This document shows, one piece after another, positions 9,144 to 32,285 of a stretch of DNA of 64,000 nt; positions within the stretch are counted from its first letter, which is position 1, and each line of letters opens with the position of its first letter. The position numbers and the translations under genes were made by a program. The notes under the pieces were generated by a model. The model had not been told where the DNA came from. It did not search any database and saw only the letters and a list, made by a program, of their open reading frames with translations. Source of the stretch: Clostridia bacterium (GTDB lineage: Bacteria; Bacillota; Peptococcia; DRI-13; SM3-B62); contig JAHDSQ010000004.1 in assembly GCA_018432615.1 (NCBI GenBank), positions 16,203-80,202 on the forward strand, in the 5' to 3' direction.

Positions 9144-9203
9144 ATACTTGGATACAACAGGTCGCCGGGTGGGATTTTAAGTGTTCGTAAAATGTTTGCT
9201 ACT

Positions 9204-10115: not shown

Positions 10116-10203
10116 AACAATTCAACTCCTCTTTAAGTATCTCCATCCATTATATATGCACATTGGTAGAAGTCAACAGAGGGAAAATATGGCAGTTTGT
10201 TTA

Positions 10204-11448: not shown

Positions 11449-11477
11449 TTAGTCGGCCTCCTGTTTAGCAGCCAGGG

Positions 11478-14503: not shown

Positions 14504-15454
14504 ATGTTTGAATCCTTGCAAAAATTGCGGGAAAATATAGCCCGGGTAGTGATTGGGAAACAAGAGGTGACCGATCTCTTACTGGTGGGGCTTTTGGCGG
14601 AGGGGCACATCTTGATCGAGGATGTGCCGGGTGTAGGCAAAACCTTGATGGCTAAAGCCCTGGCAGCTTCTCTCGATTGTAAGTTTCGGAGATTGCAGTT
14701 TACTCCGGATTTGACTCCCACTGATGTTACAGGGTTCTTTGTATTCGACCGGAAAGCCAATGAATTTACTTTTCGTTCCGGTCCGGTCATGACAAATATC
14801 CTTTTGGCCGACGAAATCAACCGCGGCATACCTCGTACACAATCCAGCCTCTTGGAGGTCATGGAAGAAAGACAGGTGACCGTCGATAACCACACCTTTT
14901 GTTTGCCGCGTCCCTACATGGTTTTGGCCACACAAAACCCCATCGAACTGGAAGGGACCTTCCCGCTGCCGGAGGCACAACTCGACCGTTTCCTGCTGAA
15001 AATTAAAGTTGGCTACCCTACGGCTGCGGATGAAGAAAGAATAATTGCCACCCACGGGAAACAAAGCGCCTTAGACTGCTTGCAAGCTGTTGCTAAGGGG
15101 GAAGACGTTTTGGCTTGGCAGGAACAGTGCCGGCAGGTACATGTAGAACAAGATTTGGTTAAATATATCATTTCCCTAATCAGAGCCACCCGCGAGCATC
15201 AGGCTTTGGCCTTGGGGGCCAGTCCTAGGGCCTGTTTGGCTGTTTACCGCGCCGTACGGGCTTATGCAGTGATTGAAGGAAGAGATTACGTTATTCCTGA
15301 CGATATCAAATACCTGGCCGGTTTTGTTCTCGGCCATCGTCTGATTCTGCGGAGAGAGGATCGCTTGCGCGGTCTTCGTGCCGAAAAGGTCTTGGAAGAT
15401 ATCTTGGCGGAGCTGCCCCTGGAACTTGCACAGGGGGCACAGAAATCATCATGA
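14504..15454 (+). CDS. MoxR-family AAA+ ATPase
   Basis: Walker A VPGVGKT and Walker B LLADEINR, followed by the typical MoxR lid domain. Confidence 0.9.
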   Translation: MFESLQKLRENIARVVIGKQEVTDLLLVGLLAEGHILIEDVPGVGKTLMAKALAASLDCKFRRLQFTPDLTPTDVTGFFVFDRKANEFTFRSGPVMTNILLADEINRGIPRTQSSLLEVMEERQVTVDNHTFCLPRPYMVLATQNPIELEGTFPLPEAQLDRFLLKIKVGYPTAADEERIIATHGKQSALDCLQAVAKGEDVLAWQEQCRQVHVEQDLVKYIISLIRATREHQALALGASPRACLAVYRAVRAYAVIEGRDYVIPDDIKYLAGFVLGHRLILRREDRLRGLRAEKVLEDILAELPLELAQGAQKSS

Positions 15455-18040: not shown

Positions 18041-18058
18041 TGCGTTTCGATGAAACAC
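18041..18058. promoter_or_regulatory. Candidate upstream activator site (UAS1): TGCGTTTC-GAT-GAAACAC
   Basis: The palindromic core GTTTC-N3-GAAAC is shared with the large palindrome at 30143-30193. Its centre lies about 108 bp upstream of the -24 GG of the sigma-54 promoter at 18156. Confidence 0.5.
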
Positions 18059-18155
18059 TAATATTACAACTATTGTTTTATATGGAACAAAGCATAAAAC
18101 GCTATTGATATCGTGGGAGAGTTGATACTGCTACCAAAAACTATATATTACTCGT

Positions 18156-18171
18156 TGGCATGAATTTTGCA
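18156..18171 (+). promoter_or_regulatory. Sigma-54 (-24/-12) promoter P1
   Basis: TGGCATGAATTTTGCA matches TGGCAC-N5-TTGCA, 66 nt upstream of the ATG at 18237. Confidence 0.75.
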
Positions 18172-18236
18172 AAAGTATTTATATGTATTAACAATTGCTG
18201 TGGCGTGTATTTGAATCCGAAGCGGGAGGGAAGAGA

Positions 18237-19619
18237 ATGACTCAGAAACTTTTAAAACGCACCCCAACACAAAATTTGGCTGAGTTTCTGTGCTTATTGA
18301 ATTATGAGCAGATACCTGAAGGAGTCATTGATAGGATTAAGTGCTCTGTATTGGATGGAATAGCTTGTGGCTATTTTGGAAGCACATCGCCATGGGGAGA
18401 AATTATGAAAGAATTTGTCCAAGAACAAGAGAGTAGGCAAGAGAGCACACTATGGGCAACAGAAATTAAAGCTCAGGCAATAAATACCGTTCTTGCTTTA
18501 GGGACGTTTATACATGCGTACGACTTTGATGACTATCATAATGCGAAGGTACACCCAGGGGCTGTTGTGATTCCGGTAGCTTTGGCTCTGGCTGAGAGGG
18601 AAGGATTTTCAGGAAAAGATTTTTTGTTAGCCGTGGTTTGCGGTTATGAGACGATGATTAGAGTGTCTTTATCGGTTAATCCTAATTCGGCGCGGTCCAA
18701 GGGATGGCATTTGACAGGAACATGCGGCGTTTTTGGGGCAGCGGCAGCAGCCGGAAAAATCATGGGACTTAATGTTGAACAAATGACATGGGCGTTGGGG
18801 TTGGCTGGCACGCAGGCTTCAGGCCTTTGGGCATTTAATATGGACGGCGCAATGAGCAAACGCTTTCATCCCGGTAGAGCAAGTCAAAGTGGAATACTTG
18901 CCGTTGAATTGGCAAAAAAAGGGTTCTCGGGCCCTAAACATATTCTTGATGCAGAGGACGGAGGAATTTGGAGCGCCACCAGTAACAGCCCGAATCCGGA
19001 AGAGTTACTCTGTGATATTGGAGAGATATTTAGATGTGAGGAAACTAATATCAAACCTCATGCCAGCTGTGCAAGCACCCATTCAGCCATTGATGCAGTA
19101 CACGAAATTATGGATAAACAAGACTTTGAGATAGAAAACATTGAGGAAATAGTTATTTTAACCAGCGAGGGAGTTAAAACGCAAACAGGTTTTGATTATT
19201 TACCGGAAAATGTTCTTCAGGCCCAAATGAGTATAAAATATGCGGTTGCTTTAGCGTTGAAATACAGGACGATACTTCCATATCACATGGAAAAAGAGTA
19301 TTTTTCTTCTTCTGAACTGCGGGAATTAATGAAAAAAGTATCTGTAAAAATAGACCAGGAAATGGATGAAATTTATCCTAAACATTTTTGCAACAAAGTA
19401 CGTATACACATGAAGGACGGTAACAGTTATGAGTGTAAGGTGCTTGATCCGTTCGGAAGTAAAGAACGTCCTTTAAGTTGGGATAATGTTGTGGAAAAAG
19501 GAAGAGCCATAGTAAGTGGCACTTTACTCGAAGAACGTTTTGATGAAATGTTAATTAAAATAAACGGGTTGGAAAATGTAGAAAATATAAGCTCTGTTAG
19601 CGAGATATTAAAGATATGA
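18237..19619 (+). CDS. MmgE/PrpD-family protein 1 (2-methylcitrate dehydratase family)
   Basis: Family-typical size and motifs (DFDDYH.., HPGRASQSG..). The start at 18237 follows GGGAGGGAAGAG; the longest ORF begins at 18195. Confidence 0.85.
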   Translation: MTQKLLKRTPTQNLAEFLCLLNYEQIPEGVIDRIKCSVLDGIACGYFGSTSPWGEIMKEFVQEQESRQESTLWATEIKAQAINTVLALGTFIHAYDFDDYHNAKVHPGAVVIPVALALAEREGFSGKDFLLAVVCGYETMIRVSLSVNPNSARSKGWHLTGTCGVFGAAAAAGKIMGLNVEQMTWALGLAGTQASGLWAFNMDGAMSKRFHPGRASQSGILAVELAKKGFSGPKHILDAEDGGIWSATSNSPNPEELLCDIGEIFRCEETNIKPHASCASTHSAIDAVHEIMDKQDFEIENIEEIVILTSEGVKTQTGFDYLPENVLQAQMSIKYAVALALKYRTILPYHMEKEYFSSSELRELMKKVSVKIDQEMDEIYPKHFCNKVRIHMKDGNSYECKVLDPFGSKERPLSWDNVVEKGRAIVSGTLLEERFDEMLIKINGLENVENISSVSEILKI

Positions 19620-19826
19620 TTGAGCTGCAATGACTTGTGTGGGTAACTGGCAATTATGCTAATAAATTTGTGAAAACTTAAGTATGCCTTGGACAATGGA
19701 ATAATATGGGCAATCATTGAGTATCAAGTAGATATTTCTATAGGAGGTGAGGGGACAAACCAATACGCGGTAATGAATGTGATAATTTACTTAGGGTTGA
19801 GCAACGAATGAGAGGAGTTAGAGACG

Positions 19827-21077
19827 ATGCCAAAAACACTTGTGGAAAAAATATTGAGCAATAAGGTAAAACATGATGTAAAGCCGGGAGACACAATAGT
19901 TGCTGATGTCGATTTTACAGCATGTCATGACGGTTCAGGGCCATTAGCATTGCGTTTGATGAAAAAAAGAAACTGGGATGGCGTTTTCGATCCTAAAAAG
20001 GTAATGTTTTGTACTGAATTTGGGCCTAGTCCGGCGAAAGAGTTATCAAATGAGCACTCATTGATTAGAAATTTTGCTATGAAACATAACTGTTACTGGC
20101 ATGAAGGCGGTACCGGAAATATTCATACTCACCTGTTAGAGGATTATGTTAAGTGCGGTGACTTGATTGTTGCAGGAGATTCCCACACAACTACACACGG
20201 AGCTTTAGGGGCTTTCGCGACTGGTATGGGATCAACGGATATGCTTTGTGTATTGCGGATGGGCAAGACATGGTTAAAAGTGCCGGAGAGCTATTTAGTC
20301 CAAGTAGATGGAGAACTGCCCAAGGGCGTATACTCAAAAGAAATATTTTTAAAATTATTAAAGGATATTAAATCCGATGGAGCTATATATAAAGCGTTGG
20401 AATTTAAAGGAAGCACAATCGAGTCTTTAAGTATGGATGCCAGGTTCACAATTTCAAATATGGGAGTTGAAGCCGGTGCGAAAGTTGCCATAATGGAGAC
20501 TGATGAAACCACAGAAAAGTTCCTTGAAAAAATGGGCAGAAAAAATGATTACCAAAAAATCAAAGCTGACGATAACGCTAAGTATGCTAAAACGATAAAA
20601 ATCGATGCGACCAAGTTAGAACCGATGGTAGCGGCACCTCATTACGTTGAAAACGGCGAACTGGTCAGAAATATAAAGGACCTGAAAGTAGATATAGTCT
20701 TTTTGGGAAGCTGTACTAACGGCAGATTGGAAGATTTACACATTGCGGCTGATATCTTGAAAGGTAAAAAGGTTGCTCCATGGATTAGGTTTATAGTAAT
20801 CCCTAATTCGCATAAGGTTTATCTGGAAGCGTTCAAGGATGGTACTTTTACAACTCTTGCAGAAGCCGGTGCCATGATACAAGCTCCCAACTGTGGCCCC
20901 TGTATGGGTGTTCACCAAGGAATTCCGGGTGACGGAGAAATCGTTGTCTCAACACAGAACAGGAATTTTAAAGGCAGAATGGGGAATCCAAACGCATTTG
21001 TTTATTTAGCTAGTCCGGCAACTGCCGCAGCTACTGCTTTGAAAGGTTATTTGACTGATCCTAGGGAGGTGCTTTAA
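19827..21077 (+). CDS. Aconitase-family hydro-lyase large subunit (LeuC/HacA type, short form)
   Basis: 4Fe-4S ligand motifs GSCTNGR and NCGPCMG, plus GDSHT; 416 aa. Confidence 0.85.
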   Translation: MPKTLVEKILSNKVKHDVKPGDTIVADVDFTACHDGSGPLALRLMKKRNWDGVFDPKKVMFCTEFGPSPAKELSNEHSLIRNFAMKHNCYWHEGGTGNIHTHLLEDYVKCGDLIVAGDSHTTTHGALGAFATGMGSTDMLCVLRMGKTWLKVPESYLVQVDGELPKGVYSKEIFLKLLKDIKSDGAIYKALEFKGSTIESLSMDARFTISNMGVEAGAKVAIMETDETTEKFLEKMGRKNDYQKIKADDNAKYAKTIKIDATKLEPMVAAPHYVENGELVRNIKDLKVDIVFLGSCTNGRLEDLHIAADILKGKKVAPWIRFIVIPNSHKVYLEAFKDGTFTTLAEAGAMIQAPNCGPCMGVHQGIPGDGEIVVSTQNRNFKGRMGNPNAFVYLASPATAAATALKGYLTDPREVL

Positions 21078-21587
21078 ATGCTTAAAGGTAGATATGAAGG
21101 AAAAGCATGGAAATTTGGAGATAATGTCAGTACAGACTCAATCGCACCGGGAAGATTAATGCATTTGCGTTCAAACCCGGAAGAGTTTGCCAAGCATGTA
21201 TTGGAAGACGCAAATCCCGAATTCCCCAAGAACGTAAAACCCGGAGATTTTATTGTTGCGGATAGTAATTTTGGGTGTGGCTCAAGCAGAGAAATAGCCC
21301 CGCTGATTATTAAGCTTTCAGGGGTTGCGGCAGTGCTGGCCAAAAGCTTTGGGAGAATATTTTATCGTAATGCTATTAATAATGGGATGCTCCTAATCGA
21401 GTGCGATACGGGCAAAATCAAAGAAGGTGACATGCTCATTGTTGACTTTGATAAAGCAGAAATAACCAAAAAGGATGACAAAGAATTCAGGGAAACATTT
21501 AACTTACAGAAAACGGAAAAGGTTATAGTAAATGCCGGAGGGTTGTTAGATTATATATCTTCAAACAATTCCTTGGATGATATATAA
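21078..21587 (+). CDS. Aconitase-family hydro-lyase small subunit (LeuD/HacB type)
   Basis: GDNVSTDSIAPGR, NFGCGSSRE and FGRIFYRNAIN. It starts immediately after the large-subunit stop. Confidence 0.85.
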   Translation: MLKGRYEGKAWKFGDNVSTDSIAPGRLMHLRSNPEEFAKHVLEDANPEFPKNVKPGDFIVADSNFGCGSSREIAPLIIKLSGVAAVLAKSFGRIFYRNAINNGMLLIECDTGKIKEGDMLIVDFDKAEITKKDDKEFRETFNLQKTEKVIVNAGGLLDYISSNNSLDDI

Positions 21588-21661
21588 TCTATACCATATA
21601 TGTCAGATATTAAACGTAAATGAAAAAACATTAAGGTTAAGGATATGATGCAATGCGAAAT

Positions 21662-21707
21662 AAGTATTAGGGGGATTGTTGATAGAGGCTTTGTCCCCCT
21701 AATACTT
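21662..21707 (+). other. Intra-operon stem-loop (perfect 14-bp stem, 18-nt loop, no U-tract)
   Basis: AAGTATTAGGGGGA ... TCCCCCTAATACTT in the 230-nt spacer between the leuD-like and second prpD-like genes. Confidence 0.6.
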
Positions 21708-21817
21708 AAAAGATAAAGTGATTAAAAAAAACAGATGTATCCAGTTTGAAAAGAGGATCAGGAGGATTGGATAAAAGAAAATGTTGATGGACAAAAAACC
21801 TGAGCAGGAGGGAGAAG

Positions 21818-23197
21818 ATGGATAACATCACGCTTTCTGAAAAACTTGCGGATTTCACACTCGGGCTTAAATTCGAGGATATACCGAAAGAAGTTCTGGA
21901 ACATTCCAAATTACTCATCATGGATACTTTGGGTGTCTCCATAGCTTCTTATGATTTAGAGCATGCAAGGATTGTCAGGGATGCTGTTATGGGTTTACAC
22001 GGTTTATCTGAAAGTACTATCTGGGGGACCGGCACAAGAACTAATATGGCTGATGCGGTCTTAGCTAATGCAGCATTAATCCATGGCATGGATTATGATG
22101 ACACTCATGTAGCAGGAGTGGTACACCCCAGCGCCAGTGTTGTTAGTACAGCTTTTGTTGTCGGAGAGAAAACTAAAGCAAATATGGATGAAATTATGAC
22201 TGCTATTATTGTCGGATGGGAATGCATCGTTCGGCTTGCACTGGCTGCTAAAGGAGCTTTTCATGACCGCGGTTATCATGCAACAGGGATACTCGCTCCC
22301 TTTGCCGCCGCTTGTACAGCAGGTAGATTGTTAAAAGTATCAAAGGGTACTTTAATAAATACATTGGGATTGTGCGGGAGTCAAGCAGGAGCCTTGCAGG
22401 AATTTTTACATGACGGCTCATGGGTAAAAAAACTACATCCGGGTTGGGGGGCGCATGGAGCAATATATTCATTGATGATGGCTGAGAGGGGATTTAAGGG
22501 GCCGCAAAAGGTTTTCGAAGGTGAGTTTGGTTTATGGCAGTCGCATTTAGGTTTTGTAGAAGGATTGACAGAAAACTTTTCTGATTTTGGGGAAGTTTGG
22601 CGAATGTCCGAAATTACATTCAAACTTTATCCTTGTTGCCATTTTATCCATTCTTTTATTGACTGCATCCTTAAAATAAAAGCCGAAAACAGTTTTTCTC
22701 CTGATGACATTCAAAAGATAGAGTGCCGTATAGGTGTAAGGGGTTCCAAAATAGTTTGCGAGCCTATTGAAGCGAAAAAAAGACCCACCACAGAATATGG
22801 TATGAAGTTTAGCTTGCCATATATAGTTGCTATGGCATTTTTGGAAGGTAGAGTCAGTCCTGCGGATATTGATGTTGCACAGATTAAGAGGCTGGAAGTC
22901 AAAGCGCTGATTGACAAGATCCATTGTATAGCAGATGAAGCGGTGGATGTACCGGGACATTTCCCAGGCTGGGTAAAAGTTCATTTAAAAAATGGACAAG
23001 AGTATATAGAAGAGCAAAAGTATGAGCGAGGGTCACGGGCAAATCCAATCAAAAATGAAGATGTAATTACCAAATACCGTCAATGTGCAGCTATTGGGCT
23101 ACCTGAAAATCGTGTGGAATCGCTATTAAATAGTATAAACAATTTTAGCTGTTTAAGTGGTATAGAGGAAATCATCAGTAACATGGTTATGGAGTAA
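21818..23197 (+). CDS. MmgE/PrpD-family protein 2
   Basis: Second paralogue, 459 aa, collinear in domain order with protein 1 (HGMDYDDTH.., HPGWGAHGA..). Confidence 0.85.
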   Translation: MDNITLSEKLADFTLGLKFEDIPKEVLEHSKLLIMDTLGVSIASYDLEHARIVRDAVMGLHGLSESTIWGTGTRTNMADAVLANAALIHGMDYDDTHVAGVVHPSASVVSTAFVVGEKTKANMDEIMTAIIVGWECIVRLALAAKGAFHDRGYHATGILAPFAAACTAGRLLKVSKGTLINTLGLCGSQAGALQEFLHDGSWVKKLHPGWGAHGAIYSLMMAERGFKGPQKVFEGEFGLWQSHLGFVEGLTENFSDFGEVWRMSEITFKLYPCCHFIHSFIDCILKIKAENSFSPDDIQKIECRIGVRGSKIVCEPIEAKKRPTTEYGMKFSLPYIVAMAFLEGRVSPADIDVAQIKRLEVKALIDKIHCIADEAVDVPGHFPGWVKVHLKNGQEYIEEQKYERGSRANPIKNEDVITKYRQCAAIGLPENRVESLLNSINNFSCLSGIEEIISNMVME

Positions 23198-23242
23198 ATT
23201 ACAAACCGATACCTATACAGTTAAAAAAGGAGGGGAAAAATC

Positions 23243-23722
23243 TTGAAGTCTTTTTTAGACAAGCTATGTAGTTACACTGAATTGATTGGAGGAGTACTTT
23301 TTGGATTAATGGCAGCAGTTGTTTTCATTCAGGTCATAATCCGGTATCTCCTCGATTATTCATTGGCTTGGACAGGCGAATTGGCCACCTTTTTGTTCGT
23401 TTGGGTGACCATGCTTGGAGCAGCGATTGCGACACATCGAATCTCCCACATAAGCGTTACGGCGTTAAATAACGCAGTTTCCGAAAAGAAAGCGTTGATC
23501 TTAAGTATGATAGCACAAATCCTTATGCTTATTGTTTCTGTGATTATTTGTGCTACTGGATTTTCTTTTGCCGTAAAGAATATAAACAACATTTCTGTAG
23601 CATTACATGTTCCTTTTGTGATACCGATGCTGAGTTTATTTATTGGGGCGCTATTAATGGTGGTTTTCGGTCTCGGTGTCATATGGAGGCTCCAAGTCGT
23701 TAGGAAAGGGGATAATTCATGA
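23243..23722 (+). CDS. TRAP transporter small permease (DctQ type)
   Basis: Four TM segments, 159 aa. Its end overlaps the start of the large permease gene. Confidence 0.85.
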   Translation: MKSFLDKLCSYTELIGGVLFGLMAAVVFIQVIIRYLLDYSLAWTGELATFLFVWVTMLGAAIATHRISHISVTALNNAVSEKKALILSMIAQILMLIVSVIICATGFSFAVKNINNISVALHVPFVIPMLSLFIGALLMVVFGLGVIWRLQVVRKGDNS

Positions 23723-25008
23723 CAAGTTTAATCTTATTTGGCTCATTTTTCTTATTGATCCTGATTTCAGTGCCGATTTCCATATCTTTGATATTGTCGA
23801 CCATAATCACAATTACATTAACTACAGGTATTGACAGCTTGCCACTTGTTCTTATCCCATCGAAAATATATTCATCAACCGAATCTTTTTCTCTGCTTAC
23901 AATACCCTTTTTTATCCTGGCCGGAAACATTATGGTTGAGGGCGGGATTGCAAAACGATTGGTAAGATTTTTTAATTCTTTTGCCAGTGGAATAACCGGT
24001 GGATTAGCCCATGTATCTGTTTTGAGTTGTACGTTCTTTGCCGCGCTGTCTGGTTCATCAACTGCAACTGCTGCGGCCATCGGTAAGTCGTTGATACCGG
24101 AAATGAAGAAATATAACTATGAACCCAGTTTTTCGGCTGCTGTTATTGCTACCGGGGGAATCATCGGTTTTTTGATTCCGCCCAGCATCTCGATGGTCGT
24201 TTATGGAATGGTTGCGGAAGTATCAGTTTCAAAGCTCTTTATCGGAGGAATAGTGCCAGGAATATTGACGGCATTGGGAGTAATGGCTATTAGTTGGTAT
24301 GTGTCTCGCAAAAAAGGCTATTCAAGTGTAAAAAATAAATTTAGCATAAAAGAAGTTTTAAACTCCTTTGCTAATGCTTTTTGGGCCTTAACTATGCCTA
24401 TAGTAGTGCTTGGGGTTATTTACCTCGGCGTATGTACACCCACTGAGGCAGCAGCAATAGCGGTGTTTTACGGATTAATTATCGCAGTGGTGATTTATAA
24501 AGAGCTCAAATTTAAGGACATAATAAAATCTTTAAAAAACAGTTTGGTAGAAAGTGCAGTAATATGTTTTTTGATGGCTAGTGCTTCGCTATTTGGGTGG
24601 TTTTTAGTCAATGAGCGGATACCGCAGATGCTTGCGGAACTTTTGCTTTCCTTCTCTTCAAGCAAAGTGGTAATACTGTTAATGATAACCGTCGTCTATC
24701 TTATTGCGGGGTGCTTTGCAAATCCTAGTGCAGCGATTGTTTTGATAGTCCCTATACTATTGCCGGTAATGAATGAACTCGGAGTCGATTTGCTCTACTT
24801 TGGGATTTTTACTGTCTTTGTATTAGGAATCGGAGTAATCACGCCACCTGTAGGACCTGATTTGTTTGTAGTTACCCCAATCGCCGGTGTTCCGTTTGAG
24901 GAAGTTGTAAAAAAGGTTATACCTTTTATCTTTATGATGATCTTGCTTGCCTTACTCTTTGTTTTTGTACCGAGTATCTTAACGTTCCCTCTTGAACTGT
25001 TATTTTAA
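23719..25008 (+). CDS. TRAP transporter large permease (DctM type)
   Basis: A 429-aa polytopic protein with typical DctM patterns (PFFILAGNIM, GPDLFV). Confidence 0.9.
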   Translation: MTSLILFGSFFLLILISVPISISLILSTIITITLTTGIDSLPLVLIPSKIYSSTESFSLLTIPFFILAGNIMVEGGIAKRLVRFFNSFASGITGGLAHVSVLSCTFFAALSGSSTATAAAIGKSLIPEMKKYNYEPSFSAAVIATGGIIGFLIPPSISMVVYGMVAEVSVSKLFIGGIVPGILTALGVMAISWYVSRKKGYSSVKNKFSIKEVLNSFANAFWALTMPIVVLGVIYLGVCTPTEAAAIAVFYGLIIAVVIYKELKFKDIIKSLKNSLVESAVICFLMASASLFGWFLVNERIPQMLAELLLSFSSSKVVILLMITVVYLIAGCFANPSAAIVLIVPILLPVMNELGVDLLYFGIFTVFVLGIGVITPPVGPDLFVVTPIAGVPFEEVVKKVIPFIFMMILLALLFVFVPSILTFPLELLF

Positions 25009-25171
25009 ATAGAACAGAGAGTGAAGCAATCATGCTGAACCTTGAACACATATACAAAAACTCTTGTAATTTTCGAGAGAGCAATAATAAGGGAAGCGAG
25101 GTGAGTGCTCAGAATAAAGGATAATTTAAGCAGGCAAGTCGGTTATTATTAAAAAAATGGGAGGTCTCAAA

Positions 25172-26197
25172 ATGTTTAACAGAAAAAGTAAATCCGTAGC
25201 ACTTCTAATCTGCATATTAGTTTTCAGCATGATGCTTTTTGGATGCGGCAATAAAGAGGAAACCGGTACAACGGGAGAAGAGGAAGCAAAAACATATACA
25301 CTAAAACTGTCCCACCCTGCCAACACTAACCATCCGTATGATACAGGTGCATTGGAATTTAAGAAACTGGTTGAAGAAGCTACTGAGGGCAAGGTCGAGA
25401 TCCAGATATTCCCAAATAACCAATTAGGAAGTCCCAAAGAAGTTGCTCAAGCCCTTCAGCTTGGTACCTGCGATATGGGTATCTTAGGTACTGCATACCT
25501 TACGTCATATGTTGAAAAGTTTGGTGTACTGGATGTGCCTTTTATCTTTTCAAGTTACCAACAGGCCTACGATTTCCTGGATTCCGAATATGCTGCTAAT
25601 GAGCTGTACAAGCCTCTGGAAGATAAAAACATCAAGTTGTTATCCTGTTTTTCCGGCGGCTTTAGAATGATGTTTAACACTGTCAGACCAATAAGTAAGC
25701 CTGAAGATTTTGCAGGGTTAAAAATCAGGATAATGGAGAGCCAGGTATATATTGACATGATGGAAACATTAGGTGGCAAACCTGTAGCGCTTCCTTGGAA
25801 TGACTTATATACATCTATGCAGCAGAATATCGTTGACGCTGCAGAATCTGGTGTCGCGCAGATTTGGTCCCAGAAATTTTATGAAGTAGCCGAATACTTG
25901 AGCGTTACAAATCATTCCATAACAGTATTGCCTCTAATGATATCAAAACAGAAATGGGATGATTTGCCGAAAGAATACCAGGAAATAATACAGAATGCGG
26001 CAACAAAAGCTGCGGATGTTGAACGGCAAGCCTATGAAGACTCGGAAAAAGAAATGCTCAAAAACTTGGAAGAAGAAGGCGGAATGAAAGTTAACAAAGC
26101 AGATACAGCAACCTTACAGGAAGCTGTCCTGCCCGTCTGGGAAAAATACGGTGAAGCATTCGGACAAGAACTGATAGACAAGGCTGCAGGTAAATAA
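25172..26197 (+). CDS. TRAP transporter substrate-binding lipoprotein (DctP type)
   Basis: Lipobox LFGCGNK and a DctP-family body. The ATG at 25172 follows GGGAGG; the longest ORF starts at 25157. Confidence 0.85.
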   Translation: MFNRKSKSVALLICILVFSMMLFGCGNKEETGTTGEEEAKTYTLKLSHPANTNHPYDTGALEFKKLVEEATEGKVEIQIFPNNQLGSPKEVAQALQLGTCDMGILGTAYLTSYVEKFGVLDVPFIFSSYQQAYDFLDSEYAANELYKPLEDKNIKLLSCFSGGFRMMFNTVRPISKPEDFAGLKIRIMESQVYIDMMETLGGKPVALPWNDLYTSMQQNIVDAAESGVAQIWSQKFYEVAEYLSVTNHSITVLPLMISKQKWDDLPKEYQEIIQNAATKAADVERQAYEDSEKEMLKNLEEEGGMKVNKADTATLQEAVLPVWEKYGEAFGQELIDKAAGK

Positions 26198-26236
26198 AAA
26201 CAAATAAATTGCAAATCAAATAATGACTTGCTTACT

Positions 26237-26278
26237 CATTTACGAATGTCAAGTATATAGGCTTGGCATTCGTAAATG
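26237..26278 (+). terminator. Stem-loop after dctP (possible partial terminator)
   Basis: 12-bp stem CATTTACGAATG/CATTCGTAAATG with an 18-nt loop. Only a short TTT follows 4 nt downstream of the stem. Confidence 0.4.
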
Positions 26279-26353
26279 GAGTTTAAAGATTTCGAATCTC
26301 AATATTGAAAAGGTTTTTCCGAAATAATGTAGTTGGGTGGTGTCAATACAATT

Positions 26354-27640
26354 ATGATAGTTGACATTCCATATGGTATGCGAAGGATAAAAGCAGATAT
26401 TCCCAATTGTCTTGGGGTATTAGAGCCGGCATCTTACCGGCCAAGCAAAAAAGAAGAAGAGATCATTGAGGAAGCTGTTTTTAATCCGATCGGAACAAAA
26501 CGTCTAAAAGAAATAGCCGTTAATGGGAAAAATGCGGTCATCGTTGTCAATGATCTAACGAGACCTGATCCTGCCGAAATCATGGTGAAGAGTGTATTAG
26601 ACGAACTGTGGCAAGGCGGTCTGAAAAATCAAGATATAACTATAGTAATAGCTACCGGAAACCACAGACCTATGAACGAGGAAGAAATAAAAGAAAAACT
26701 GGGGATATCAACAAATAATCAAATCAAATGCCTCAATCATGATTGTATGGATCCTTCAAATATGAAGTATTTCGGAAGGACTAAAAGAGGAATGCCTGTA
26801 TATGTAAACAAAATTGTTGGCTCTGCAGATATCAAAATAGTTACAGGATTGATCATGCCTCATCAAAGCGCCGGGTTCAGCGGAGGACGCAAGAGTATTG
26901 TTCCGGGGGTTTCAGGTATAGAGACGTTAAAGATCCATCATTCATTTCCGATCAGACCGATTGAGCCGATAATGGGGGAAATTATTGATAATCCGTTTCA
27001 TGAAGAAGCAATGGAAGGCGCAAGGATGGTTGGCGTGGATTTCATGGTAAATACTATCCAAAATGAACGGCACGAAGTTATCTATGCGGTTGCCGGTGAT
27101 CTTGAAGAAGCCTATTACAAGGGAGTGGAGTATTCCAGAAAAATATGGGAGGTAGAAATCGCACGGAAAGCGGACGTAGTTGTTACAAGCCCGGGAGGAT
27201 ATCCGCGCGATATTGATTTGCATCAGGCCCAGAAAGCATTAGCCTCAGCTGAATTAACCGTTAAAAGTAATGGAGTAATAATATTGGTAGCAGAATGCAG
27301 AGAAGGTATCGGTAAGTTCGCGGATATTTTAAGAAATGCTAATACTCCTCTTGATGTTGTAGAAATGTTTAAAAGAGAAGGATATACGAAAAAGGCGACC
27401 TCAAAAGCGTTTATGTTTGCCCGGGCTATGTTGGATCATATGATTATTATTGTTAATGATGTATTGACGAAGGATACGTTGGAATCGATGTTTTTCATTC
27501 CTGCAGGAAGTGTTGAAGAGGCTATAAATATTGCTTTGAAAGAAATGGGTAAAGACGCGGAGTTTCTTGTTCTGCCGAGTGGAAGCGAAATAATACCTAA
27601 AGTGAAAGGTAGTGTTGGAGATGGGGAAAATCAGTGTTGA
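26354..27640 (+). CDS. LarA-like nickel-pincer (NPN) cofactor-dependent 2-hydroxyacid racemase/epimerase family protein
   Basis: It aligns by eye to L. plantarum LarA: NPIG, NDLTRP (Arg75 equivalent), ATGNHRP (His108), MPHQSAGFSGGRKSIVPG (His174, Lys184), IHHSF (His200) and QAQKAL (Gln295/Lys298). Confidence 0.8.
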   Translation: MIVDIPYGMRRIKADIPNCLGVLEPASYRPSKKEEEIIEEAVFNPIGTKRLKEIAVNGKNAVIVVNDLTRPDPAEIMVKSVLDELWQGGLKNQDITIVIATGNHRPMNEEEIKEKLGISTNNQIKCLNHDCMDPSNMKYFGRTKRGMPVYVNKIVGSADIKIVTGLIMPHQSAGFSGGRKSIVPGVSGIETLKIHHSFPIRPIEPIMGEIIDNPFHEEAMEGARMVGVDFMVNTIQNERHEVIYAVAGDLEEAYYKGVEYSRKIWEVEIARKADVVVTSPGGYPRDIDLHQAQKALASAELTVKSNGVIILVAECREGIGKFADILRNANTPLDVVEMFKREGYTKKATSKAFMFARAMLDHMIIIVNDVLTKDTLESMFFIPAGSVEEAINIALKEMGKDAEFLVLPSGSEIIPKVKGSVGDGENQC

Positions 27641-28187
27641 AGAAGTCAGGCAGTTGTTTCCGGAACTTGACTTGTTGGATAATCAAGAATGGGCAGAAAA
27701 AGTATGTTTAGTATGGAAGCAGGCATATGAGGAAAGCAACTGGAGAAATATAGAGGATGCACAGCACAATCACTTGACGCCGGGGGTATCTTTAGTAAAC
27801 CACAGTAGGTGTGTTGCCATCAATGCTCTTGACATGGTCGAAACTTTGTATGATGTTTTTAAGGTACAAGCCGATAAAGATGTTACAATTGTTTCAGGCA
27901 TTTTACACGATGTTTGTAAACTAATTGAACTTGAGCCAACTGAAGACGGTGGCTGCAGGAAAAGTGCAATTGGTAAACAATATCAGCACGGGTTTTTAAG
28001 CGGACATTATGCTTTGAATGCAGGTTTCCCGGAAAAAATCGTTGCAAACATGATAAATCATACCCCTGAGTCTAGGGTGATACCACGAACCATTGAGGGT
28101 CTAGCATTATATTATGCGGATTCAGCAGTAGCAGATTTCCAGAAGCTTATTGCCAAAGTACCTTTATTAGCTGAACGGCATAAATAA
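27612..28187 (+). CDS. HD-domain protein (metal-dependent phosphohydrolase superfamily)
   Basis: GILHDVCK HD motif. It overlaps the larA-like 3' end. The start is uncertain (27612-27618). Confidence 0.7.
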   Translation: MLEMGKISVEEVRQLFPELDLLDNQEWAEKVCLVWKQAYEESNWRNIEDAQHNHLTPGVSLVNHSRCVAINALDMVETLYDVFKVQADKDVTIVSGILHDVCKLIELEPTEDGGCRKSAIGKQYQHGFLSGHYALNAGFPEKIVANMINHTPESRVIPRTIEGLALYYADSAVADFQKLIAKVPLLAERHK

Positions 28188-28220
28188 AGACGTAGCGTTC
28201 GAAATATATTCAAAGAAAAG

Positions 28221-28251
28221 GGCCCTATCCTGGTGGGATAGAGCCTTTTTT
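28221..28251. terminator. Bidirectional terminator between the HD gene and convergent icd
   Basis: GGCCCTATCC-tggtg-GGATAGAGCC followed by TTTTTT. An A-run upstream serves the opposite strand. Confidence 0.7.
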
Positions 28252-28266
28252 GATCATTTCTTTTCG

Positions 28267-29475
28267 CTACATCATTTCATCGAGCCGGATTTTGATTGCC
28301 TTCAGAAAATCTTCTGTGCCGACCGCTTCTTTCTTTGATAACATAGATATCTGTAACAAGTCCTTAGTCATTACCCCATTCTCGATTGTCTTGATAGAAG
28401 CAGCTTCGAGTTTATCAGCAAAGTCAACGAGATCGGAAAGTCCATCGAGTTCACCGCGTTTTTTCAAGGCTCCGGTCCAGGCAAATATGGTTGCCATAGA
28501 GTTTGTTGAGGTCGCTTCTCCTTTTAGATGCCTATAGTAATGTCTTTGAACTGTCCCGTGGGCAGCCTCATATTCGTAATATCCCTTAGAAGAGACAAGG
28601 ACTGATGTCATCATAGCCAGGCTACCGAAAGCGGTAGCGACCATATCGGACATAACATCACCATCATAGTTCTTGCATGCCCATAACATGCCACCTTCAG
28701 ACCTGACGACACGTGCTACTGCATCATCTATTAAAGTGTAATAGTAATCTATTCCGGCTTCGGCAAATTTTTCTTTGAAATCACGTTCATATGTTTTCCA
28801 GAATATTTCTTTAAATACGGAATCGTAGGTTTTGGAAATAGTATCCTTGGTGGAGAACCACAGGCTGACTTTCTTATCCAAAGCGTAAGTAAAGCAAGCT
28901 TCGGCAAAGCTTTGGATAGATTCATCTATGTTGTGAATTCCCTGTATTATACCTTTGCCTTTGAAATTATGGATAATTGTCCTGGTTTCTTCGCCATTCT
29001 CTGATGTATAGACAAGCTCGGCTTTTCCGGAATTTTCCACTCTGTATTCCACGTTTTTATAAACATCGCCATAGGCATGTCTGGCTATGATTATAGGTTT
29101 TTTCCATGTTGGGATAAGAGGTTTAATCGAATCAATAGTGATAGGGGCACGGAAAACGGTGCCGTCCAAAATTGCTCTTATTGTACCGTTGGGGCTTTTC
29201 CACATTTTTTTCAAGTTGTATTCCTTGATTCTGTCAGCGTTCGGAGTTATGGTTGCACATTTTACACCGACCCCATATTTTTTTATTGCTTCGGCAGAGT
29301 CAATTGTGATTTGGTCGTCACTCTCATCTCTTGTTTTGAGGCCTAGGTCGTAATATTCGGTTTTTAATTCTACATACGGTGTAATAAGGATGTCTTTAAT
29401 CATTTTCCAAATGATCCGTGTCATTTCATCCCCATCCATCTCAACGAGTGGAACCTTCATTGCAATTTTTGTCAT
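28267..29475 (-). CDS. icd: NADP-dependent isocitrate dehydrogenase, subfamily II (eukaryote-like homodimeric type)
   Basis: The N-terminal [13 protein letters not shown]...KCATITPN and the 402-aa length are characteristic of type II IDH. Confidence 0.9.
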
Positions 29476-29504
29476 TATTAGTACTCCCCTTTCGTTTATA
29501 TATA

Positions 29505-30020
29505 TTAATTAACTTTTAAATCAGGATGGTTTTCCTTAACTATTAGCGTTGTGACAGGTGCTTTTGAGTATTCGGTAAATAAAATATCATGTCCAATGCA
29601 CAGCCCTATTATTATATTTAGATCAGTATTGCATTTATTTAATAAAAAGGCTTGTCCCTTGGGATTGCACATAGAATCATGCTCGTTGACATTTTTCTTT
29701 TTTACGCCGAAGACCGATTTGTCTATTCCTCCGTTTTTACAACACACGGATATAACGTCAAATTCACGGGCGAGTGTATTATGGATTATTTTAGACTCTT
29801 TCTTGTAAGTAACGCAATAAGCAAGACCTATTTTCTTGTAACCCATAATTCTACAATACTCCATAACTTGGTTTAATCTGGCAAGGCCTTTTTCCATTAG
29901 TTTAGAGGCAATCAATACATTCAAATCTTCACCAGTATAGCTTATATCCTTTGTACCGTAACAATCTTTTCCCCTTCTGCAGTCATTATTTTCACATAAA
30001 ACGCACTTTATAACGATCAC
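29505..30020 (-). CDS. DUF1847 family Cys-rich (putative metal-binding) protein
   Basis: [16 protein letters not shown]-terminus and further conserved Cys (VCCKNGG, MCNPKGQ, GLCIGHD). GTG start after GGAAAGGAA. Confidence 0.7.
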
Positions 30021-30046
30021 TTCCTTTCCAGCCTACTATTTAGCAA

Positions 30047-30062
30047 TGCAAAACTCGTGCCA
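30047..30062 (-). promoter_or_regulatory. Sigma-54 (-24/-12) promoter P2, driving DUF1847-icd
   Basis: The minus strand reads TGGCACGAGTTTTGCA, a perfect TGGCAC-N5-TTGCA. Its -12 end is about 27 nt upstream of the GTG at 30020. Confidence 0.8.
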
Positions 30063-30142
30063 ATCGACGGTGTTCGTTATCCATAAGCATTACAAGATTA
30101 CTGAGGTTTAAATGGTGTTTCAAACTGTGTTCCATGTAAGAC

Positions 30143-30193
30143 GAAATCAATCTACAATTGCGTTTCGTTGAAACGCAATTGTAGATTGATTTC
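30143..30193. promoter_or_regulatory. 51-bp perfect palindrome (24-bp arms, 3-nt centre); candidate bEBP binding site UAS2
   Basis: GAAATCAATCTACAATTGCGTTTC-GTT-GAAACGCAATTGTAGATTGATTTC. Its centre lies about 108 bp upstream of the -24 GG of P2, in the divergent region between the DUF1847 and activator genes. Confidence 0.6.
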
Positions 30194-30350
30194 TTATTTA
30201 TGTTAAAACAGCAAGAAGTTATCATATCGAAATTCGCCATATTCTGATAAAATAAAGAATAAGTATCGAATCAGGATTATTTTTCGGAAGAGACAAAAAA
30301 TGTTAAGTTTCATATGAGGCAAAATGGGAATTGATAGGGAGGCATTATTA

Positions 30351-32285
30351 ATGGCAATTTATAAAGGAACTGTAGGAATAATAGGACGGGAAGCATTTTA
30401 TGACACAATTAAAAAAGAGGTATCGAACAATCCGCGATACTCTTGTTTTGAATATATATACTTTCAAGATTTGTTTGATGATGCCTACAAACAAATCAAT
30501 CAGTTGGTTGATAAAATTGATGTTTTTATTTCCGGGCCCAGGCATTATCAATTCATCAGTTCATGGTTTCCGGAAAAACCCGTCGTAAAAATCAAACCAG
30601 TATCTTTTGATATTCTTGAGGCATTGAAAGAAGCCGCTGAAATTGACAATAATATATATATCCTGAGCCCGTATAACTTTAACGACTTGACCAATTTTAA
30701 GAATATATTCAGAAGCGATTTAAATATATTTCAAAATATTTTTACAGATATTAAAGATTTGAGGCGTTCTTTTCAGTATGTTGTGGAAAGAGGAGGAAAA
30801 GCGGTAGTGGGAGGTAGTTTGGTATGCAATATTGCCAATGAATATGGTCTTACGGCTTTTCATTATTACTCCAAAGAGACAATCAAACAAACGATTGACA
30901 ATGCAATCAACTTAATGTTGATCAAGCTTGAACAAAAAGCTATTCACGAGAAAATGAGGAAGGTTGTTGATTTCAGTGATGTCGGTTTGATAGTTGTGGA
31001 CAACAAAGGGGATATCGAATTTACAAACAGCCATGCTATCAGGTTGCTTGGCCGCACGAATTCAAACACATTAGGTTTCAATATCGACAAAATCACACCA
31101 TATAACACTTTAAAAAGTATTGACAATGAAAACAAGATACTTGTGATAAATGGAACAGAAGTATTATGCGATAAAGTCATTGCTAATGATGAAAGCATGA
31201 TTTATCGTTTCCAAGAAGTAACCCGGGTTGAAAAGGCTGGACAGGAAATCAGAAAACAAGCACTATTAAAACTAAAAAAGGCCAAGTATAATTTCAGTGA
31301 AATCGTGGGAGGCGGGTTAACTTCAACTATAGACATAGCAAAATCGTATGCAACATCGTCCGATGCAAATGTATTGATTATCGGTCCGACGGGGAGCGGA
31401 AAAGAGTTATTTGCTTCAAGCATTCATAATAGTAGCTCCAGGGCACAAAAACCTTTTGTCCCCATAAACTGTGCGGCTCTTCCGGAAAATTTGCTGGAAA
31501 GTGAGCTTTTCGGCTATGAGGCAGGTTCGTTTACCGGAGCAAATAAACAGGGGAAGCGGGGATTAATAGAACTTGCCCATCAGGGAACACTGTTTCTTGA
31601 TGAAATTGCAGAACTGCCGTATTCTTTACAAGCAAAAATGTTGCGGGTATTACAGGAGAAAGAGGTTTTACATGTTGGAGGTGAAGATCTCATTCCTATC
31701 GATATAAGGGTTATTGCCGCTACAAACCGTTCCCTGGAAGAATATATTTCAGAAGGACGCTTTAGGGCAGATCTTTATTATCGTCTTTCAAGTTTGATTT
31801 TGGAAATTCCGCCGCTATCGGTCAGGCGTCACGATGTGTTTGAACTAGTTGATTACTTTTTAAGGTTTAAGGATGTGCCCAGTATTACCTCGGAAATAAT
31901 CAAAAGTGTAATACTCGACTATTATAAGGAATATGATTGGCCGGGCAACGTAAGAGAAATACAGAATATCTTAGAAAGGGTCGTAACTTATATAAAATAT
32001 ACCAATAAACAACAAGCAACCGCAAAAGAGCTTAGTAAGGACCTGCATGACATGTTAGATACGTTCGAAAACATGTGTAAAATATCGGAAATAAAGGATT
32101 ATAGAAAAGGAAAGTTCCAGCAGTTGAGTATTGAAAGATTTAAAACAGAAAATGCGAATAATGACATAAGAAATGCCTTGGAGGCAGCTTTGGAGGCTGC
32201 CGGAGGGAATAAAACGAAGGCAGCAAAATTATTAGGTGTTAGTAGATCAACGTTATGGAGATGGTGTAACGAGAAAATGGGATAA
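30351..32285 (+). CDS. PrpR-like sigma-54-dependent activator (PrpR_N-like sensor, PAS, AAA+, Fis HTH)
   Basis: The N-terminal 190 aa are collinear with the PrpR N-domain pattern (..[30 protein letters not shown]..). Walker [15 protein letters not shown] loop, [19 protein letters not shown]. The ATG at 30351 follows TAGGGAGG. Confidence 0.85.

Follow-up and report, generated by a model that had tools for sequence, protein, structure and literature searches.

This report concerns an island of twelve genes of a spore-forming anaerobe, located in a 64,000-nucleotide stretch of the Clostridia bacterium assembly GCA_018432615.1 (contig JAHDSQ010000004.1, positions 16,203–80,202 of the forward strand; the whole stretch is termed the window and its own numbering is used below). 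The island encodes two MmgE/PrpD-family proteins, a LeuCD-type hydro-lyase, a TRAP transporter, a LarA-type racemase/epimerase, an isocitrate dehydrogenase (IDH), an HD-domain protein, a DUF1847 protein and a dedicated sigma-54 activator. Judged from the families of these proteins and from their neighbourhood in other genomes, the balance tilts modestly toward an inducible catabolic module, which would take an exogenous C6 tricarboxylate of the aconitate/isocitrate/citrate family to isocitrate and then to 2-oxoglutarate. The reading is carried by three lines of evidence: a shared regulatory architecture of both transcription units, conserved active-site residues in several of the enzymes, and the recurrence of related genes together with tricarboxylate transporters, aconitases and IDH in other anaerobes.

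Organization and regulation of the island

The identities of the proteins were assigned from Pfam and NCBIfam profile scores. The twelve genes, with the domains ascribed to them in the initial annotation of this DNA, are all real by these profiles. The profile search that the annotation had proposed as a check upheld the identities at the family level. The features of the island are as follows.

18042..18056, no strand: UAS1, an upstream activating sequence with palindromic core GCGTTTCGATGAAAC, a putative activator site centred 107 bp upstream of P1
18156..18171, plus: P1, sigma-54 -24/-12 element TGGCATGAATTTTGCA, zero mismatch, 66 bp before the ATG of the MmgE/PrpD 1 gene (prpD1)
18237..19619, plus: MmgE/PrpD-family protein 1, 460 aa (Pfam MmgE_PrpD_N 2e-72, MmgE_PrpD_C 7e-34)
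19827..21077, plus: LeuC/HacA-type Fe-S hydro-lyase large subunit, 416 aa (NCBIfam subfamily models, 512–524 bits)
21078..21587, plus: LeuD/DmdB-type small subunit, 169 aa (LEUD_arch 183 bits, cut-off 109)
21818..23197, plus: MmgE/PrpD-family protein 2, 459 aa (Pfam domains)
23243..23722, plus: DctQ, TRAP small membrane subunit (DctQ 2.6e-25)
23719..25008, plus: DctM, TRAP large membrane subunit (DctM 4.5e-116; TIGR00786 411 bits)
25157..26197, plus: DctP, TRAP solute-binding protein (DctP 1.6e-92)
26354..27640, plus: LarA-family nickel-pincer 2-hydroxyacid racemase/epimerase, 428 aa from ATG (LarAH6 model, 443 bits)
27621..28187, plus: small HD/HDIG-domain protein overlapping the larA stop (HD 3e-6)
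28221..28245, no strand: bidirectional intrinsic-terminator-like hairpin (10-bp stem and T-run on the minus strand; 7-bp stem and T-run on the plus strand)
28267..29475, minus: type II NADP-IDH, 402 aa, icd (PRK08299 equivalog, 656 bits, cut-off 335, residues 1–402 of 402)
29505..30020, minus: Cys-rich DUF1847 protein (DUF1847 2.4e-44)
30047..30062, minus: P2, sigma-54 -24/-12 element TGGCACGAGTTTTGCA, exact match just before DUF1847-icd
30147..30189, no strand: UAS2, a palindrome with perfect arms of 20 bp and a core (30160–30176) that matches UAS1, centred 106 bp upstream of P2
30324..32285, plus: sigma-54 enhancer-binding protein, PrpR_N-PAS-AAA+-Fis-type helix-turn-helix (domain models and motifs)

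The partition of these genes into two sigma-54 units, P1 on the plus and P2 on the minus strand, had been proposed in the initial annotation and is well borne out by the two exact promoter elements, the palindrome shared at 106–107 bp upstream and the terminator between the units. The motif TGGCAY-N5-TTGCW is matched exactly only twice in 64 kb, at P1 and P2, and its stricter TGGCAC form has a single exact match in the window (P2; 0.08 expected by chance). The palindrome core, GCGTTTCG-N-TGAAAC (N being A or T), occurs in 64 kb only at 18042–18056 and 30160–30176, a count of two that was reached in 0 of 100 shuffles. UAS2 sits in the divergent region common to DUF1847-icd and the activator gene. 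The hairpin at 28221–28245 parts the convergent ends of the HD gene and icd, closing both units, while no terminator-like hairpin was found in the internal gaps of 208 bp (after prpD1) and 231 bp (after leuD). P1 presumably drives all nine plus-strand genes, with additional internal promoters possible in these two gaps.

The dedicated PrpR_N-PAS-AAA+ activator holds up equally well, as its domains are intact together with the Walker A motif, the GSFTGA loop and the helix-turn-helix (Sigma54_activat 5e-65). Three hallmarks of a sigma-54-dependent operon are present, i.e., a promoter element before the first gene, an AAA+ activator with a GAFTGA-type loop and upstream activating sequences. The best-scoring model of the activator is PrpR (TIGR02329, 375 bits vs. 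a cut-off of 499; PRK15424, 356 vs. 703), and the identification as PrpR itself was rejected, since the protein lies below both equivalog cut-offs.

Predicted enzymes of the island

The two MmgE/PrpD proteins are 27% identical to each other and neither of them is a PrpD orthologue: the PrpD equivalog models, with cut-offs of 458–950, give protein 1 a score of 28–62 bits and protein 2 no more than 48. PrpD of the 2-methylcitrate cycle was accordingly rejected as an identity of MmgE/PrpD 1. The nearest relatives in the PDB are the B. subtilis 'IRG1', CAD (cis-aconitate decarboxylase) and IDS-epimerase (105–137 bits, about 25–28% identity). The active site of human CAD comprises the eight residues D93, T97, H103, H159, K207, K272, H277 and Y318. 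MmgE/PrpD 1 keeps the equivalents of five of the eight (D93, H103, H159, K207 and K272) and has Y, C and K in place of T97, H277 and Y318, respectively; with three of eight residues replaced, CAD (itaconate synthesis) was rejected as an identity as well. The residues that are kept form the family-wide set that holds the succinate-like substructure and stabilises the enolate, and they are common to CAD/Irg1, IDS epimerase, methylsuccinate isomerase and the uncharacterised B. subtilis 'IRG1', the last of which also shares an invariant Cys with MmgE/PrpD 1. The acid/base pair of methylsuccinate isomerase-type enzymes consists of His102 and Tyr148 in P. aeruginosa numbering (PMC12290011). MmgE/PrpD 1 has the His equivalent (H106) and differs from these isomerases in having no Tyr base, so that a Tyr/His epimerase was rejected too; four residues ahead of H158 the window protein has Ser, at a site that varies within its clade. 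Since the family spans dehydratases, decarboxylases and epimerases (PMC9875883; PMC12290011), the name 'dehydratase' is a plausible assumption in the case of the window proteins.

The LeuC-like and LeuD-like proteins form a large and a small subunit that pass the subfamily models of Fe-S hydro-lyases, and the three cluster cysteines (C296, C356 and C359) are kept. All equivalogs are missed (PRK07229, 343 vs. 612 bits; HacA_Meth, 438 vs. 550; LEU2, 428 vs. 611; leud, 159 vs. 246; HacB, 153–158 vs. 230), and for this reason aconitate hydratase, homoaconitase and isopropylmalate isomerase were rejected as assignments. The substrate loop of LeuD reads GRLMHLRSN, its R-S-N being aligned with the K-Y-R-S-N of genuine aconitases in two related loci (L084 and L085). 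It is suggestive that this loop, through its His and Arg, may offer a basic residue for a third carboxylate.

The LarA protein belongs to the nickel-pincer superfamily by its catalytic His pair and its cofactor-ligand Arg, Lys and His: in alignments to 5HUQ, 6C1W and 6D6Z the equivalents of R75, H108, H174, K184 and H200 of L. plantarum LarA are all kept. Its specificity positions read Q, S, S and K. The best model is that of the LarAH6 malate racemase (443 bits vs. a cut-off of 500), followed by LarAH5 (367 vs. 462). Where LarA1 has W358 and T359, malate racemases carry H/Q-K (PMC11770544). The window protein has S-K there, which means that the Lys for the distal carboxylate is kept and H/Q is replaced by the smaller Ser, and it falls short of the LarAH5/LarAH6 malate racemases in both the equivalog score and the H/Q position. 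The protein shares with the malate racemases LarAH5, LarAH6/Mar2 and LarAH62 the fold, the catalytic His pair, the Lys/Arg/His cofactor ligands and the distal-carboxylate Lys (PMC7583248; PMC11770544), and Mar2 (PDB 6D6Z) is matched with 243 bits. It differs from them in the sub-threshold score, the Ser, a neighbourhood of tricarboxylate enzymes and a clade that contains fusions to LeuD. These fusion proteins (P0127 and P0132; 601–620 aa) consist of an N-terminal LeuD-type small subunit and a full LarA, and are 51% identical to the window LarA; no description of a LeuD-LarA fusion was found in the literature. The fusions, together with the PrpD-family neighbours of related larA genes, lend support to a place for LarA in the same pathway as the hydro-lyase. 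Given that LarA requires a C2-H carbinol, has relatives fused to LeuD and is encoded with IDH, it would most simply serve to invert C2 in an isocitrate-type acid that is made or used by the hydro-lyases.

The remaining proteins are of uneven clarity. The type II NADP-IDH exceeds its equivalog cut-off over the full length, and the TRAP transporter is complete, with DctQ, DctM and DctP all present and adjoining. The nearest structures of DctP bind assorted carboxylates or nothing, and no specific ligand follows from them. Neither the HD protein nor the DUF1847 protein has a sequence relative in the PDB. DUF1847 has about nine conserved Cys as well as H144 and D145, and its predicted model (mean confidence, pLDDT, 91) gave only generic alpha/beta matches and no structural relative with a TM-score above 0.42; in Methanolobus the gene lies among NifB-like and CbiA/ParA-type Fe-S genes. 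It is probably a metal- or Fe-S-binding alpha/beta domain, and one may guess that it is a carrier of Fe-S or metal serving the Fe-S hydro-lyase. The start of its open reading frame (ORF; window 29996–30020) is a GTG abutting the Shine-Dalgarno-like GGAAAGGAAG. The family consensus begins with 'MKC' and aligns with the window 'IKC' (ATA AAG TGC) three codons in, and the true start codon may be non-canonical or mis-set.

Relatives and surroundings of the island

The distribution of the system was followed in a survey anchored on MmgE/PrpD 1, which gave 80 genome loci (84 distinct loci for the count of PrpF). Many of these are fragments of metagenome-assembled genomes (MAGs) from related lineages and are not fully independent, and Burkholderiales loci were left out of the dissection, their ORF maps being noisy from high GC. 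MmgE/PrpD 1 has only a few near relatives, the best of them at 62% identity; that of Moorella mulderi (57%) is the nearest with a name, and Moorella also gave the top hit among the GTDB representative genomes. The neighbourhood conservation that the initial annotation set as a check was seen across unrelated lineages, with relatives of MmgE/PrpD 1 (PrpD1-like), LarA, LeuCD, IDH and the PrpR-like activator grouped repeatedly in Desulfobacterota, Syntrophales, Spirochaetota, Firmicutes and Thermodesulforhabdus norvegica. What recurs is not specific to Firmicutes and is highly modular, and the exact gene set did not turn up elsewhere in the genome and metagenome scans.

Four Desulfobacterales loci (L017, L018, L021 and L084) combine, in this order, a PrpR_N-sigma-54 activator, PrpF, TctCBA, a PrpD1-like protein, aconitate hydratase and type II IDH, the aconitate hydratase being genuine (PRK07229, 875 vs. 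612 bits). Three other loci (L019, L029 and L036) have PrpF, TctCBA, PrpD1-like and IDH genes in succession and no aconitase within 10 kb. Syntrophales loci (L006, L007 and L016) comprise, again in order, TctCBA, PrpD1-like, PrpF, a fumarate-reductase-like flavoprotein, an Fe-S protein, aconitase, IDH and the alpha, beta and gamma subunits of 2-oxoglutarate:ferredoxin oxidoreductase. The IDH of these loci is a non-orthologous type I NADP enzyme (654 vs. 567 bits). Since two unrelated IDH classes occupy one slot and are followed by an enzyme that consumes 2-oxoglutarate, the selected function is therefore the conversion of isocitrate to 2-oxoglutarate. Type II IDH adjoins PrpD1-like genes in eight distinct loci, TctCBA lies directly 5′ of the PrpD1-like gene in most Desulfobacterota loci, and a PrpF-family isomerase is found near PrpD1-like genes in about 37 of the 84 loci. 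Among Firmicutes, the tandem of PrpD1-like and PrpD2-like genes is accompanied by TAXI-TRAP, PrpF, LeuCD, class I fumarase, malic enzyme or a glycyl-radical enzyme.

The gene for LarA adjoins PrpD-family genes in three loci. The Spirochaetota locus (L085) contains PrpF-aconitase and TctCBA-PrpD1-like-LarA. Another one (L088) encodes LarA, a PrpR_N activator, PrpF, an Fe-S protein, a flavoprotein, LeuC (51%), LeuD (56%), IDH (68%) and a PrpD1-like protein (52%); sigma-54 elements precede both of its units, and such elements with a PrpR_N activator occur also in L084, the activators of both loci having the same architecture as that of the window and a similar range of scores. The third is that of Thermodesulforhabdus norvegica (L101; GCA_900114975.1, 1–14371), where the sigma-54 element TGGCATAATGTTTGCT and prpF-larA-mmgE/prpD-abrB-icd stand beside a PrpR_N activator, with genuine TcuA (682 vs. 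369 bits) and TcuB (364 vs. 247), TctCBA and AcnA on the divergent side. It is the only one of these loci with genuine TcuAB; the flavoprotein/Fe-S pair of L088 and Syntrophales, tried as TcuAB-like, was rejected because NCBIfam shows it to be fumarate-reductase/TfrA-like. Two further larA loci are of note. One of them (L087) is a 5.4-kb fragment with DctQMP-LarA-HD arranged as in the window (LarA 74% identical), and another (L086) carries an operon of TctCBA, NicX/M29-like, LeuC, the LeuD-LarA fusion (gene at 10001–11863) and GntR.

The HD protein is 85% identical in L087, where it follows LarA, and 70% in L099 (GCA_032774505.1), where it follows DctP and no LarA is present. The latter locus, reached via a DUF1847 search, contains DctM (74%), DctP (50%), HD, citrate lyase genes, a LeuC-like aconitase, DUF1847 (73%) and IDH (81%), so that this citrate-lyase locus has the TRAP-HD and DUF1847-icd backbone in common with the window and lacks PrpD and LarA. 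Many gene calls at 400–9217 of this locus are short and split (DctP, citC, citF and others), which suggests frameshift errors of the MAG assembly rather than real pseudogenes. A phage-type integrase lies 3′ of icd there.

Relatives of MmgE/PrpD 2 were found in tandem with PrpD1-like genes in Moorella mulderi, in L002/L003 and in a contig of the Joint Genome Institute (JGI), and a metagenome scan anchored on this protein gave no close copy. Its best metagenomic relatives (54–55%; L089/L090, 9995–19931) lie beside an aminotransferase and a carrier of the Na+/H+-antiporter family. Close by are three LysR-regulated genes, for an aconitase-family protein of 764 aa, another MmgE/PrpD protein and PrpF, a trio that resembles the ybhH/ybhJ genes of E. 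coli. Directly upstream of the PrpD2-like/PrpD1-like tandem, Moorella mulderi (L001/L004, 1468–14247) and the JGI contig encode a glycyl-radical enzyme with its activase; the enzyme is closest to the sulfopropanediol dehydratase, hydroxyproline dehydratase and CutC models, far below their cut-offs, and TAXI-TRAP, a two-subunit class I fumarase and malic enzyme belong to the same locus.

The GC content of the island (0.37–0.40) lies below that of its flanks (0.44–0.49), and no integrase or tRNA was found beside it in the flanks within the window; a comparison with Rfam gave no RNA genes. Directly to the left are genes for a MoxR AAA+ ATPase, DUF58 and DUF4129 (14504–17933, plus strand), and those for an OmpR-type two-component pair, DUF4342 and a topoisomerase follow on the right. 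Another sigma-54 enhancer-binding protein is encoded at 1218–2996 (plus strand; closest model PrdR, 540 bits vs. a cut-off of 795), preceded by a CoA-disulfide-reductase/NADH-oxidase-like flavoprotein (17–1201, plus strand), and the vicinity of this activator showed no exact -24/-12 element. Further features of the window are an IS200/IS605-family TnpB RNA-guided endonuclease gene (6346–7443, plus strand; IS200_TnpB 374 bits vs. 425, general TnpB model passed) and a 334-aa ORF at 11478–12482 (minus strand), which adjoins an AspT/YidE-type transporter gene. Models of FMN-dependent L-lactate dehydrogenase match this ORF only with their C-terminal third (residues 204–331), and its product is possibly an alpha-hydroxyacid oxidase that has diverged or been truncated.

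Proposed pathway, alternatives and known systems

The module could operate as follows. The PrpR-like activator would sense the acid or an early intermediate via its PrpR_N/PAS part and bind the shared palindrome about 106 bp upstream of both sigma-54 promoters, thus switching both units on, and DctPQM would import the acid. Both MmgE/PrpD enzymes would perform enolate chemistry on a succinate-like substructure and, together with the Fe-S LeuCD hydro-lyase, add water at a double bond of the aconitate type, or remove or shift it. The nickel-pincer LarA would invert the C2 carbinol of an isocitrate-type 2-hydroxy-tricarboxylate to give (2R,3S)-isocitrate. Finally, the co-induced NADP-IDH would oxidise and decarboxylate isocitrate to 2-oxoglutarate for fermentation or central metabolism. 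The substrate, the reaction of each MmgE/PrpD protein, the LarA substrate, the order of steps and the roles of HD and DUF1847 are all inferred. Aconitate isomers or tricarballylate-derived acids are favoured as substrate given the linkage to TcuAB, PrpF and aconitase, and isocitrate epimers, hydroxycitrate and citrate are other candidates. The initial annotation had outlined the same course, from import through isomerisation to isocitrate and IDH. The outline is backed by co-conservation with tricarboxylate transporters, PrpF, TcuAB, aconitase, IDH and 2-oxoglutarate:ferredoxin oxidoreductase, and a tricarboxylate as substrate also by the citrate-lyase locus that has the TRAP-HD and DUF1847-icd backbone of the window; of its details, PrpD dehydration was assumed and the LarA falls below the malate-racemase cut-off.

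The evidence of the related loci converges on a modular system, widespread in anaerobes, in which TctCBA, TAXI or TRAP transporters would take up a tricarboxylate, and MmgE/PrpD, PrpF, LarA, TcuAB or a fumarate-reductase-like flavoprotein would process it for an aconitase-family hydro-lyase, isocitrate and IDH, often under a PrpR-like sigma-54 activator. The window variant has TRAP, two MmgE/PrpD proteins, LeuCD and LarA, and neither PrpF nor TcuAB. A bolder version, which we hold as tentative and rather doubtful, would make LarA the first nickel-pincer enzyme to act on a tricarboxylate, as an isocitrate or hydroxycitrate 2-epimerase. With MmgE/PrpD and LeuCD producing 'wrong' isocitrate epimers, it might open a new stereochemical-correction route by which trans-aconitate, tricarballylate-derived and other non-TCA (tricarboxylic acid cycle) tricarboxylates reach IDH, bypassing the canonical aconitase/PrpF; the LeuD-LarA fusions would serve as Rosetta-stone evidence, and DUF1847 could be a dedicated metal or Fe-S partner.

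Several points weigh against the proposed pathway. All function is drawn from family membership and gene neighbourhood, genome and metagenome scans turned up no second instance of the exact arrangement of twelve genes, and PrpF and TcuAB, which accompany the module elsewhere, are absent here, so that the substrate of the window may differ. The IDH may be the housekeeping copy of the organism, and the MmgE/PrpD family also includes enzymes that decarboxylate or epimerise (PMC12290011). LarA scores highest with malate racemases and may be nothing other than one of them; tricarboxylates are not among the compounds assayed with LarA homologues (PMC11770544, whose text does not contain the word 'citrate'). 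Among the scanned window ORFs, neither the genes for LarA cofactor synthesis (larB, larC and larE) nor rpoN were seen; as to the latter, the second sigma-54 activator at 1218–2996 suggests that the host uses sigma-54.

One may ask if the acid is hydroxycitrate, catabolised via oxalosuccinate, a reading that we consider unlikely and still the foremost of the alternatives. PrpD-type elimination (C2-H, C3-OH) would yield enol-oxalosuccinate and then oxalosuccinate, which IDH would decarboxylate to 2-oxoglutarate; LarA would invert C2 of the Garcinia/Hibiscus diastereomers, the two PrpD paralogues or LeuCD would take the C3 configurations, and PrpF-family tautomerases would perhaps aid the tautomerisation in other lineages. 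It is in line with this that hydroxycitrate has the C2-H carbinol that LarA needs, that 2-hydroxycitrate is the 2-OH analogue of 2-methylcitrate with an enol-oxalosuccinate product that is an IDH intermediate, and that the window sensor is of PrpR_N type, PrpR being a sensor of 2-methylcitrate. IDH directly follows PrpD1-like in the three loci that have no aconitase within 10 kb, and PrpF-like proteins score near-equally on the PrpF and 4-oxalomesaconate tautomerase models. Moreover, a bacterial enzyme that turns hydroxycitrate into 2-oxoglutarate has been purified, without a gene assigned to it, and NADP-IDH acts weakly on the Garcinia isomer (PMC4945632). Yet hydroxycitrate is a niche product of plants and microbes, whereas the module is widespread in anaerobes of sediment and groundwater, and the linkage to genuine TcuAB, aconitase and citrate lyase points to the aconitate/citrate family; the chemistry itself is drawn by analogy only.

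We give lower odds to plain citrate use, a separate malate-racemase role, a methylcitrate cycle and an anabolic role. The first of them, for which the chances appear slim, takes the island as the oxidative branch of citrate use: TRAP would import citrate, an MmgE/PrpD protein would be an Fe-S-independent, 'AcnC'-like citrate dehydratase, LeuCD would convert cis-aconitate to isocitrate for IDH, and LarA, PrpD2, HD and DUF1847 would be accessory or unrelated. The closest TRAP-HD and DUF1847-icd relatives do sit with citrate lyase and aconitase, TctCBA is the classical citrate transporter, and NCBIfam names the E. coli-type PrpD 'bifunctional 2-methylcitrate dehydratase/aconitate hydratase'. However, citrate has no C2-H carbinol, which leaves LarA and the LeuD-LarA fusions unexplained, as are the two MmgE/PrpD paralogues and the swap of citrate lyase and aconitase for the window genes, and DctP is only 50% identical to the copy of the citrate-lyase locus. 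Somewhat less probable again is a mosaic of two functions under one regulator, in which TRAP-LarA-HD imports and racemises D/L-malate or epimerises tartrate, with PrpD1-LeuCD-PrpD2 and IDH acting separately. The LarAH6 best model (443 bits), the malate-racemase Lys, the block of DctQMP-LarA-HD standing as a unit in L087 and the activity of malate racemases on tartrate (PMC11770544) would fit it. Against this stand the score below 500 bits, the Ser in place of H/Q and the clade of this LarA, which is fused to LeuD and embedded in PrpD/PrpF/IDH/TcuAB operons; L087, being a 5.4-kb fragment, lends no weight by its missing neighbours. That the island forms an oxidative TCA branch, anabolic or housekeeping, which supplies glutamate synthesis rather than breaking down an external acid, seems very improbable: the high-affinity TRAP importer within the operon, the dedicated sensor-activator with its sigma-54 promoters and the GC content 5–8 points below the flanks all speak against it, LarA and two MmgE/PrpD genes would be superfluous, and in its favour is the standard nature of the NADP-IDH. 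Many anaerobes use LeuCD-like aconitases, which would also suit such a role. The least credible, scarcely worth entertaining, is a variant 2-methylcitrate cycle for propionate under a PrpR regulator; it would be prompted by the PrpR_N sensor with PrpR as its best-scoring model and by the presence of proteins of the MmgE/PrpD family alongside an aconitase-family hydratase. There is, nonetheless, no PrpC, PrpB or PrpE in the island and no gene of the citrate-synthase or phosphoenolpyruvate-mutase/isocitrate-lyase families in 14.5–37.3 kb, the MmgE/PrpD scores (at most 62 bits vs. 458–950) are far too low, that of the activator (375 vs. 499) is below its cut-off, and IDH, TRAP and LarA would be unexplained.

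If the proposed pathway is true, it would be a hitherto unrecognised route by which anaerobes, from sulfate reducers and syntrophs to spirochaetes and clostridia, consume trans-aconitate, tricarballylate and possibly hydroxycitrate or isocitrate epimers from plants and microbes. It would provide first functions for large MmgE/PrpD clades, extend the LarA superfamily to tricarboxylic substrates and give DUF1847 a physiological context. Tricarballylate and trans-aconitate are relevant to ruminant nutrition (magnesium chelation, grass tetany) and to soil carbon turnover, and enzymes inverting the stereochemistry of isocitrate or hydroxycitrate would be useful biocatalysts. Thermodesulforhabdus norvegica, a cultured sulfate reducer with a homologous operon, could serve as an experimental model.

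The initial annotation did not recognise the gene combination as a characterised operon, and indeed no characterised operon of this content was found in the literature. No paper was found that describes this combination or the broader PrpD1-PrpF-aconitase-IDH-TctCBA module, and the same holds for hydroxycitrate degradation genes, an isocitrate epimerase, LarA with PrpD and TRAP, DUF1847, or TcuA with PrpF and LarA as such an operon. In its function the island would resemble the prp/PrpR, tcu and tar systems, in which an acid is imported and isomerised on induction and so led into the TCA cycle; it belongs to none of the three and probably holds new enzyme specificities.

The prpBCDE/PrpR 2-methylcitrate cycle of Salmonella and E. 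coli and the AcnD-PrpF variant of Shewanella (PMC5690661) have, like the window, a sigma-54 promoter with a PrpR_N activator and an MmgE/PrpD protein in tandem with an aconitase-family hydratase on a tricarboxylate, and the PrpF isomerases that accompany the module in related loci add to the likeness. The window differs in having no PrpC, PrpB or PrpE, in MmgE/PrpD proteins and an activator below the equivalog cut-offs, in an exit through IDH instead of a lyase, and in the added TRAP importer, LarA, HD and DUF1847. The tcuRABC genes of Salmonella resemble the role proposed for the window, as they lead an exogenous tricarboxylate to cis-aconitate and isocitrate, and TcuA and TcuB stand beside the homologous prpF-larA-mmgE/prpD-icd operon of T. 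norvegica. The window lacks TcuA, TcuB and TcuC and has extra isomerising enzymes; tcu is regulated by a LysR-type regulator, whereas the window has a sigma-54 enhancer-binding protein. The tarR-tarAB genes for trans-aconitate assimilation in Bacillus velezensis, likewise a Firmicute, provide an inducible importer and an isomerase for a non-TCA tricarboxylate isomer (PMC11495376). Tar is composed of one PrpF-type aconitate isomerase and one transporter, in contrast to the island, in which Pfam detects no PrpF domain (so that it belongs neither to Tar nor to AcnD-PrpF) and which has two MmgE/PrpD proteins, LeuCD, LarA and its own IDH. Finally, the nearest relatives of the window DctM, HD, DUF1847 and IDH (70–81%) occur in a citrate fermentation locus of the citCDEFXG type (L099), while the window has no citrate lyase and carries PrpD1-LeuCD-PrpD2 and LarA in that role.

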